From Cladosporium halotolerans (lineage: Eukaryota): a stretch of DNA of 64,000 nt. The DNA lies in assembly GCF_011745625.1 (NCBI RefSeq), contig NW_027191497.1:62001-126000 (forward strand), read 5' to 3'. The notes under the pieces were generated by a model that was given only the letters and a program-made list of their open reading frames with translations, had not been told where the DNA came from and ran no database searches. Position 1 is the first letter of the stretch; every line of letters starts with the position of its first letter. Position numbers and translations under genes: made by a program. Shown here in pieces: positions 33,329 to 36,300 of this stretch.

Positions 33329-36300
33329 TCACTGGTTTTCCACAGAGCCCAGCAGGCCGGACTCGCGCACGAGCTCGTAGAAGAGACCCTTCTGTTTGAC
33401 CAACTCCTGCGGTGTGTCGAACTCCTTGACTTCACCCTTGTCGAGCACGACGATCCGGTCGCTGTCAAGGATGGTGTTGATGCGGTGAGCAACTGATCGA
33501 CGCTGTTAGCATATTTCTGTGTGACTAATGCAAGACCTGGAGACTCACTTGTAATGATCGTGCGATCCTTGAACATATTACTGCGCAACGTGGTCTGCAG
33601 CATGGCGTCGGTCTCGACGTCGACCGCTGCAGTCGCCTCGTCCAAAACCAGGATGTTACTGGGCGTCAGGAGTGCACGGGCGAGCGAGACCAACTGTCTT
33701 TGCCCCTGTGACAGATTAGATCCTCCTTCGTTAATCTGTGCGTCAAGTTGACCCGGCATCGAGGCTACGTGGTCACGCAGACGGGCGTGATCGAGCACGC
33801 TCCAAAGCTCGGTGTCGTCGTGTACATGACCGGGGTCAAGGTTGTCCCGCACGGTTCCTTCGAAAAGCGCAGCATCTTGTGGGATGATGGCGAGCCGACG
33901 TCGGAGATCCAACAGACCCATGGAACTGGTGCTGAGTCCATCGATCGTGACGTCGCCAGATGCAGGTTCGATGAGGCGGAAGAGCGCGAGGGTCAACGAG
34001 CTCTTTCCTGCACCCGTTCGACCGACCACTCCGATCTTCTCATGGCTCTTGATGTCCAGGCTGATGTTCTTCAACACCAGATCCAAGCCCTCGCGGTACC
34101 TGGTGCTGTAGCCATTGAAGCTGACGGCACCCTTCGGCGGCCATGAGACCGGCGGCCTGTGCTTGGAGATGATCTCAGGCGCTTCGCTGGGGAGTCGGGC
34201 GTATTCCAACACACGCTCAACGGATACGATGTTGGTCTCGACTTCGACGGTTTGTCTGACGATCCAGTTGAGGGATTGAGTAATCTGGAGAGCGTAGCTC
34301 ATCGCCAGACCGACCGCACCGGCGCTCAAGCCACTACCAGTCGACACCGAGATAATGGCGAGACTCGCCGCCGCCAGGATGATGACGGAGCCCAGGAACT
34401 CCAGGCGCACGGCCAGCCATCTGTTCGCATTGATCGAGGGGAAGTAAGCACGGAGGTTGGCGTCAACTCTCCACTCGTTCTCCAGCGAGAAGCGCTTCTG
34501 CTGATGGTATGCTCGGATCGTGCTGATGCCCTGCAGACAATGAACGTTAGTATCAAACAAGCGATATGCAACAAATGATCTAACACAGAAGGCATACTGC
34601 AAAGGTGTTAGCACAGTGTTCCCATTTGTGTGTGACAATGACGACCCACCACTTAGTGATTCTTGGAAGTGGGCGTAGATGGGGCTTCGGCTAATGCTGT
34701 CCAGCCGCTTGAGCTCCCGCGAAGTCCGGAGATAGTAGCGTTGGATCCACAGGTAGAGAGCGCCCAATGGAATGATCAGTGCGACAAAAATCGGCGTGGA
34801 ATAAGAAATGACGACCAGTGTGAAGAGAGCTACGAGTCACGGATCGTTAGCGGACGTTCGAACGGTAGGCGGTCGGGGATGGGCCGGATTTCAGGTGGAG
34901 CAAAATAGCGCCAAAGCACGATCCTCCAATTTGGGCATCCACATCGCGGCACGGGAGGAATTCAAGATTCCTCTGCCTCGTTGCAACCGAAGTGAGCTTA
35001 CCTCTTGCGGCGTTGACAAATAACATGTTGAAAGTTCGCCTGATCGAGGAGTTAGCACTTTCGACGCGTGGCGCTGATGTCTGGACCACAACTTACGCTA
35101 GCACTTCATCAATGCGATAAATATCACTAAGAGACCCTGTTAGTTTCCTTTCCTATTGCCGCGCACGCGAGATCGACTCTCAAACAAAGCCCCACAAAGA
35201 GGATTGCTTGAAACGCTTCCTATTCGACGGGGAGACAATTTTGGCGCTTTCTAAGCGCCAGCCGCCCTCGTACCTCGGTGCGAACCGACGCAGGAACGGG
35301 CTTCTAAAACGTACCTTGAGAAGCGGTTCAAGATACGGCCGCTCGGCGTGGTCTCAAAGAAGCTCATCGGGCTTCGGAAGATCGCGTAAGCCATCCTCTC
35401 GTGTAGCTTTCGTGAAGCCTGCGCGCACGAGTCAGTTGTCAATGTTCGATCGGCCAGATCCGCCAAAGATCCACCCAAGATGCTCGTGACAGCCGTCGGG
35501 GCCCTGGCTCGAGCAGTCGGCTGGTCTTCATGCAAAGTACGCCGGAGCTGTGCACCGCAGCTCTAGTGCCTAGTGCAACTCGGAACGCAAGTCGGAAACC
35601 TGCCGCCGTGGAGGGGTCATACGTACCTCGATGGAGCAGAAGATCCATAGGATGAGAGTTTGCAGGACGACAAGCGCTGCGTTACCGAAACCAAAAGCGA
35701 AGTAGATGCCAATATACTTGCCGACGTGGGGGTTGCCGCCGGTGCGGCCATTGACCTCTGACCAGTTCTTGAGCCATACGCTTCCGCCTGCAGATACCCA
35801 AGTCAGCGCTCAAGCACTCAAAAGATGCACTTCTCCTCTTCTCATGAAACACGACATGATGATTCCCTCCCGAACAATTCCGCAAGTACAAACACCGGCG
35901 CTGATGCGCTGGCATTGCTGTTGCATAGCATCGCTTTGTGCATGCCAACTTACCGATTTGTGCGGATTGTGCTCCTACGAGCATGACCAGATAAACGGCA
36001 ACGGCCGCCAAGTTGCTTGTCCTCGCATACTCGGAATAGACATCCCACTTGACCTTTCCTTGTTCGGAAAACTCCTTCGATTGCTTGGATTTAAGGGCGC
36101 CCTGAACGCAAGTCAGCATAATCTGTTCCGTCGCAGAGTAGGTGCAGGCGTTGTATGGGTCAGCTGGTGCAAGAGCTTACCTTGTTCTCTTCCTCATCAG
36201 TCATCTTGCCTCTAGGTCCGCGGAAAGATGCAGTGCTAGCTCTGCGCAGAGTGAGATCGCTGGTCTTCCTCAAGGGTGGACCGCGACCAGAAGCTTTGAT

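Follow-up and report, generated by a model that had tools for sequence, protein, structure and literature searches.

How does the splicing machinery remove an intervening sequence whose first two letters are GG? The question is raised by the gene of a YCF1-type ABCC transporter (33329..38982) in a 64,000-nucleotide stretch of Cladosporium halotolerans contig NW_027191497.1, which we refer to as the window; coordinates are positions in the window, and the gene with all its parts lies on the minus strand. Exon 7 (34651..34829) ends with the protein letters ...HFQESLS. Exon 8 (33549..34530) opens with GISTIRAY... and encodes the end of the second transmembrane domain (TMD2) and most of the second nucleotide-binding domain (NBD2). 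Between them lie 120 nucleotides (nt), 34531..34650, that begin with GG and end with CAG. They contain no stop codon and are in frame, so that an open reading frame (ORF) at 33298-34836 runs through all 40 codons (GGSSLSHT...HCLQ). We consider it very probable that these 120 nt are an alternatively spliceable stwintron (an intron inside a splice site) of the [D1,2]/[A2,3] type, which the pre-mRNA of the transporter would lose in two consecutive U2 reactions. The architecture of the element, its exact absence from transcript-like contigs and the recurrence of its layout in a second lineage carry this reading.

A single canonical reaction does not lead to the right product here. The two nearby GT dinucleotides, at 34652 and 34649, could each be joined to the CAG at 34531, but these cuts remove 122 and 119 nt, respectively, and both shift the frame; in-frame GT-AG pairs across the element remove conserved residues, and correct removal by one canonical GT/GC-AG reaction is impossible. 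Within the 120 nt, in contrast, two complete sets of signals are found. The 5' unit (34597..34649, 53 nt) has the donor GTGGGT (34649-34644), the branch element GCTAAC (34612-34607) and the acceptor CAG (34599-34597). The 3' unit (34531..34597, 67 nt) has the donor GTATGC (34597-34592), the branch element ACTAAC (34551-34546) and the acceptor CAG (34533-34531). The branch elements stand 11 nt (5' unit) and 16 nt (3' unit) from the 3' end, and the two units overlap by one base, G34597. One further G precedes the 5' donor (34650) and another follows the 3' acceptor (34530). A [D1,2]/[A2,3] stwintron has been defined as two terminally overlapping U2 introns with one G in common and a G on both exonic flanks (PMC5587772), and the element matches this definition on each of these counts.

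Two routes of removal follow from this geometry. On the [D1,2] route, the 53-nt unit (34649-34597) would leave first, and G34650 would then join TATGC to form the donor GTATGC of a 67-nt external intron with ACTAAC as branch element and the CAG at 34531 as acceptor. Here the internal intron sits between nucleotides 1 and 2 of the external donor and is preceded by a G, and the external branch element and acceptor are in place. On the [A2,3] route, the 67-nt unit (34597-34531) would leave first, and its removal would bring CA next to G34530, rebuilding the acceptor CAG of a 53-nt external intron that uses GTGGGT and GCTAAC; the G found directly after the 3'-most acceptor is the one that rebuilds CA/G. 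The whole stwintron is thus written 34531..34650 in [D1,2] notation and 34530-34649 in [A2,3] notation. In the former, G34650 opens the external donor G/TATGC and G34530 is exonic, part of the Gly codon GGC; in the latter, G34650 is exonic and G34530 completes the external acceptor CA/G. Both routes would give the identical mRNA ...CTAAGT/GGCATC.... We infer that removal takes two steps, along one route or both.

Much of this had been proposed in an earlier account made from the letters of the window (the sequence-only reading): the removal of exactly 120 nt starting with GG, the frameshift after any single GT-AG cut from the nearby GTs, the two branch sites and two CAG acceptors, the G+TATGC and CA+G geometry, and an ORF that reads through 120 stop-free, in-frame nt. 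All of these hold. The signals are where that account had placed them, the flanking G34650 and G34530 and the common G34597 are present, the two single cuts come to 122 and 119 nt, and ORF 33298-34836 spans the element. The length of 120 nt agrees with the contig joint, the protein spacing and the gapless alignment to a homologous protein (P0007) described below. The same account assigned the element to a known class of fungal stwintrons, which is in accord with the published description (PMC5587772).

We asked how often such a layout arises by chance. We defined the twin layout as an internal YAG/TRNGY and units of at least 45 nt, with each acceptor preceded at 8-40 nt by a CTRAY element. In dinucleotide shuffles of the element interior with the ends fixed, the internal junction alone appeared in 946 of 20000, and the full twin layout in 5 of 20000. 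When both strands of the 64-kb window were searched for the same layout, the YCF1 locus was the only match. The twin layout is more than chance. The 120 nt show no notable fold or internal symmetry (-25 kcal/mol, z = 0.76), and a blastn-short comparison of all eight intervening sequences of the gene with the 64-kb window gave, apart from self-matches, one 13-nt chance match and no similar copy.

We then turned to transcripts. Contigs assembled from four public runs (Logan), which are RNA only by guess, were aligned to the whole gene. Three of them, X1, X5 and X6, each stem from a different study and organism, and their contigs are ~99% identical to the window (mismatches in 20 of 2921 letters for X1 and 29 of 2921 for X5). 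We took these as transcript contigs because they skip the gene's other GT..AG introns: six other intervening sequences are missing from them, each bordered by CT..AC on the plus strand and hence by GT..AG for the gene, and a seventh contig joint lies near the gene's 3' end. In addition, a low-depth X5 contig crosses an exon/intron border (35403-35553), indicating that the organism of X5 carries the introns and that its long contig is spliced RNA. At the element, the contigs of X1, X5 and X6 have 34528 joined to 34649. Exactly 120 nt are missing from them, and a placement ambiguity of 2 nt allows only GG..AG, GT..GG or TG..GG as border pairs. On the shorter side of the joint X1 has 113 nt, X5 has 74 nt and X6 has 29 nt, so that two runs are solid and one is weak. 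The mature junction CTAAGT/GGCATC, the first thing that the sequence-only reading had suggested looking for, is accordingly present in the transcript-like contigs of X1 and X5 and, weakly, of X6. Use of a different in-frame junction, which that reading had named as evidence against itself, does not occur in them, as the contigs join 34528/34649 and not 34522/34646.

The latter pair is what would be joined if the gene used the in-frame canonical intron of 123 nt that runs from GTCGTC (34645) to CAG (34523) and yields QESLSGG/TIRAY. Such an intron keeps the frame, and its product is what one database entry contains: the public model of Cladosporium fusiforme protein P0004 reads QESLSGGTIRAY at the site and has SLSGGTIRAY (residues ~1142-1165, corresponding to window 34523-34650), exactly the product expected from this poor in-frame GT-AG pair (34645/34523) in the window. 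However, the donor GTCGTC is poor, the contigs use the other joint, and the motif SG[ILMV]STIRAY is kept in 119 of the best 120 full-length homologues. P0004 is the exception, one residue shorter than the other 119, and resembles the spurious models that automated annotation has been described to give at a stwintron site (PMC5587772). We regard a 123-nt intron as barely credible. The one-residue deletion in P0004 is probably a spurious product of an automated model, a mis-annotation, and the reading of that model suggests that C. fusiforme has the element too.

The mature junction alone would fit a single excision equally well. A one-step, non-canonical splice with the borders GT..GG (34649..34530) or GG..AG, to which the internal signals would be irrelevant, would leave the same end product, which is all that the contigs show, and no intermediate was seen. 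Yet the seven other introns of the gene all have GT..AG borders, and GT-GG borders are extremely rare in fungi. Nor does a one-step reaction account for the interior of the element, where an internal junction and two well-placed branch elements occur together, as in only 5 of the 20000 shuffles, or give a reason for the conservation of the twin signals in a second locus, described below, whose interior does not align with that of the window. One-step splicing is, in our judgement, unlikely.

Several points weigh against the stwintron. The RNA label of the runs is a guess, and the organisms behind them may not carry the 120 nt in their DNA. The X6 joint, with 29 nt on its shorter side, falls below the 31-nt threshold for bridging. 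No joint with only the 53-nt or only the 67-nt unit removed is listed in the aligned contigs; assembled contigs drop rare forms, so the missing intermediates neither support nor refute the two-step routes. Since the window has an open frame across the 120 nt, their retention would not truncate the protein. Finally, the nearest metagenomic relatives (L003, L004, L007, L008 and L009) do not have the element in their genomic contigs.

The last of these points, together with the open frame, could be accommodated by a presence/absence polymorphism, in which the DNA of the strains behind the RNA runs would not contain the 120 nt and the strain of the window would carry a 40-aa (amino acid) insert or a defective allele; L008 and L009 are close relatives that do not have the element in genomic DNA while keeping other introns. 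But these element-free relatives are only ~80% identical to the window at the DNA level, whereas the RNA contigs are ~99% identical to it, and two DNA-like sources count against a polymorphism as well. In X10, the fourth run, no joints are found, the 120-nt joint included, and indels lie inside introns, as in DNA. In a further data set, a 439-aa ORF (P0121) encoded on another contig has an exon 8 identical to that of the window (327/327). P0121 begins within the element, 28 residues ahead of GISTIRAY and in the frame of the window, from which it differs in one residue besides the start M (V in the window). It includes the last 84 nt of the element with the internal CAG/TATGC junction (translated ...LQYA...), and, like the ORF of the window, it reads through the last intron, indicating an unspliced, DNA-like sequence. 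P0121 counts against a presence/absence difference and, by the frame that it keeps from the element into exon 8, also against a one-base assembly error.

Such an error, for instance an extra G in CAGGGC, would turn the whole case into a plain 119-nt GT..AG intron with the same mRNA. It has some appeal, since GT (34649)..AG (34531) misses the required length by just one base and runs of G stand on the flanks. However, P0121 stems from another assembly and preserves the frame, no indel is listed at the element in any aligned run even though X10 indels are listed inside other introns, and the off-by-one layout recurs in an independent assembly of another species (L010, below). We hold an assembly error to be very improbable.

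Protein comparison leads to the same 120 nt from another side. The best Protein Data Bank (PDB) matches of the read-through ORF 33298-34836 are structures of Saccharomyces cerevisiae Ycf1 (E = 4.9e-154), and in the structure-sequence match, ORF residues 4-63 correspond to Ycf1 1079-1138 and residues 101-429 to Ycf1 1136-1463. Two separate blocks of the ORF are thus matched to contiguous Ycf1 residues, leaving ~40 ORF residues without a counterpart, and these are the translation of 34650..34531. The spacing from PIY to ANRW, constant in 119 of the best 120 full-length homologues, equals the spacing obtained after exact removal. None of these 120 proteins contains the 40-aa insert, and when exon 7 was searched together with the translated element, none of the best 120 matches covered the insert. 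The spliced model of 1535 aa aligns to P0007 gaplessly over 1533 aa and is 93% identical to C. fusiforme P0004. A polymorphic insert would have to break a motif of invariant spacing (119/120) and would be found in none of the best 120 proteins. With the evidence from DNA-like sequences and from the second locus, where the equivalent segment has an in-frame stop and must be removed, we think such a polymorphism decidedly unlikely.

The sequence-only reading had also proposed aligning orthologues at this position. We scanned metagenome contigs and obtained 80 loci, some of them duplicates of each other, 78 of which cover the site. The site is empty in 77 of the 78, and 45 of these 77 are on contigs longer than 7 kb and hence genomic. 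At the remaining locus, L010, 168 nt in the same twin layout interrupt the gene at the same codon as in the window: units of 58 and 110 nt, one common G, and a G on both flanks (...AGT G/GTATGT...ACTAAT...CAG/TATGTC...ACTGAC...CAG/GGC ATC). Its exon 8 is 91% identical to that of the window in amino acids and ~77% in nucleotides. The L010 element contains an in-frame stop, so that its removal is obligatory, and taking out 167 nt by one GT..AG cut would break the frame. An alignment of the two elements revealed no convincing likeness beyond splice signals and exons. The conserved part is therefore the twin signals and not the sequence, and homology of the elements is not demonstrable by sequence.

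Further carriers may exist. P0181 is the ORF of L010 itself and represents 33 member sequences. Another protein, P0187, has the same start as P0181, with Q before exon 8, and its exon 8 is 91.7% identical to that of L010. Only an intronic CAG standing immediately ahead of GGC can supply this Q, and P0187 is therefore probably a further lineage with an intervening sequence at the site. The carriers are then the window and L010, and probably C. fusiforme and P0187.

Among the loci with an empty site, L008 and L009 share the other intron positions of the window (near residues 934, 984, 1038, 1095 and 1481) and are uninterrupted at residue 1154, the stwintron being the one intervening sequence that they do not keep. 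L003 (a 45-kb contig) and L004 (17.6 kb), at 93% amino acid identity, do not have seven of the eight intervening sequences and keep the last intron, which suggests that one sublineage lost introns wholesale. No one-base-shifted canonical intron was found at the site among the 78 orthologous loci, where the site is either twin or empty. As a separate observation, many intron-less orthologues (L025, L031-L033, L050-L051, L055 and others) read AGT/GGT ATG or AGT/GGT ATC at the site. Both resemble a 5' splice site (G/GTATG), a likeness that may have a bearing on intron birth here.

To place the carriers, we examined a tree of 386 columns. The window falls in a clade of seven rows, with a Shimodaira-Hasegawa-like approximate likelihood ratio test (SH-aLRT) value of 99, together with C. 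fusiforme, L008/L009 and L003/P0005/P0007. Within it, the rows that do not have the element form a subclade (SH-aLRT 94), and C. fusiforme and the window branch below, their mutual order having an SH-aLRT of 0. In the same tree, L010, P0187 and Cryoendolithus are grouped (88) and adjoin a group of Saxophila plus the Cladosporium-like rows (80); the element is missing from the Saxophila-like genomic loci L014 and L015. In the approximately unbiased (AU) test, a sister relationship of the window and L010 was not rejected with either 386 columns (p = 0.11) or 225 columns (p = 0.37). The carriers stand in two neighbouring groups, and the data fit a single origin followed by at least two complete losses as well as they fit independent gains. 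A tentative proposal, which we rate as possible at best, is that both units of the twin intron arose together at a previously intron-free site, or that two independent insertions hit the same nucleotide, and that the whole element was later lost precisely in nearest relatives that kept their other introns. If this is true, the YCF1 site would be a natural system of stwintron gain and loss outside Xylariales and Eurotiomycetes.

How does the element compare with known systems? The closest is the stwintron of the Trichoderma reesei gene dhaoS, which encodes a DHA1 antiporter; both splicing intermediates were cloned, and the dual form occurs in 28 of 73 orthologues (Fekete et al. 2017, PMC5587772). 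The YCF1 element has in common with it the one-G overlap, the flanking Gs and a layout by which either unit can leave first with identical mRNA, and in both cases annotation has mis-modelled the site. The units are also comparable in size (66+88 nt in dhaoS, 53+67 in the YCF1 element and 58+110 in L010). It differs in host and lineage, being in an ABCC transporter of Dothideomycetes (Cladosporium-like), and it is known here from sequence and contigs. The [D1,2]/[A2,3] form has been proposed as an intermediate of one-base intron shifts (PMC5587772); unlike the dhaoS model with its one-base-shifted canonical introns, the YCF1 site is empty in 77 of 78 loci. The first described [D1,2]/[A2,3] case, in the alternative oxidase gene of Helminthosporium solani, had its intermediates verified by reverse transcription PCR (RT-PCR) (Ag et al. 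2015, as cited in PMC5587772). As far as that citation describes it, it has the same dual-route layout and is likewise from a Dothideomycete, but it is in a different gene and its intermediates are RT-PCR-verified. In Hypoxylaceae/Xylariaceae, 'sister' [D1,2] stwintrons are similar to one another in sequence (PMC12403724, PMC9024468, PMC8469720). The YCF1 element resembles them in its [D1,2] type and in an intron position missing from most orthologues, and differs from these Xylariales elements in having no similar copy in the 64-kb window and no special fold.

Stepwise removal is also a feature of recursive splicing at ratchet points (AG/GTRAGT), where the first step regenerates a 5' splice site. 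The YCF1 element resembles it in that it would be removed stepwise with a regenerated 5' splice site. It is set apart by its internal junction, CAG/TATGC, which has no G of its own and no complete regenerated GT donor, and which becomes a donor only after borrowing the upstream G. Recursive splicing has been named among other complex intervening sequences, and the interrupted splice-site element is what separates stwintrons from it (PMC5587772).

The element is a genuine stwintron of the published type in a new gene and lineage, and not a new kind of element. The sequence-only reading had known of none in YCF1; likewise, in the main texts searched, supplementary catalogues aside, we found no report of a stwintron in a ycf1, ABC transporter or ATP-binding cassette gene. 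Stwintrons are the clearest evidence for splice-site pairing by intron definition in filamentous fungi, and few dual-route cases have been documented. The YCF1 element adds one in a large, conserved and easily aligned gene of a ubiquitous mould lineage. The codon is occupied by a second such element in another lineage and is free of it in close relatives; the case is useful for the study of stwintron evolution. It has a practical side as well. Gene predictors cannot model such sites, and here the ORF runs through the 120 nt; with the apparent spurious deletion in P0004, this makes it likely that the transporter annotations in these genomes are wrong at this position.

The host gene, as established from contig joints and canonical borders, has nine exons and encodes 1535 aa. 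Exons 1-6 lie at 38982-36181, 36101-35954, 35787-35627, 35418-35315, 35126-35097 and 35039-35002, and exons 7-9 at 34829-34651, 34530-33549 and 33492-33329. Its homologues carry the domains PF24357, PF00664 and PF00005, and the product is predicted to be a full-length TMD0-TMD1-NBD1-TMD2-NBD2 protein whose closest relatives are Ycf1/MRP; we call it YCF1-type, a label that does not resolve it from the yeast YCF1 paralogues.

Between 34830 and 35953, four introns of 172, 188, 208 and 166 nt are unusually long for a filamentous ascomycete, and there are two micro-exons of 38 nt (35002-35039) and 30 nt (35097-35126); all are confirmed by contig joints, and the positions are common to L008, L009 and L011-L015. 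In exon 1, the contigs of X5 and X10 break at 37271 and 37303 and continue into unrelated sequence. The loose ends measure 255 nt at either side in X5, against 103 and 27 nt in X10, and are alike between the runs. In the X5 and X10 samples, another locus or transcript may have a short stretch of exon 1 in common with this gene. Directly 3' of the gene, the region 30500-33000 has a GC (guanine plus cytosine) content of 61-72%, against ~53-57% in the gene, and contains ORFs of 80-240 aa in all six frames.

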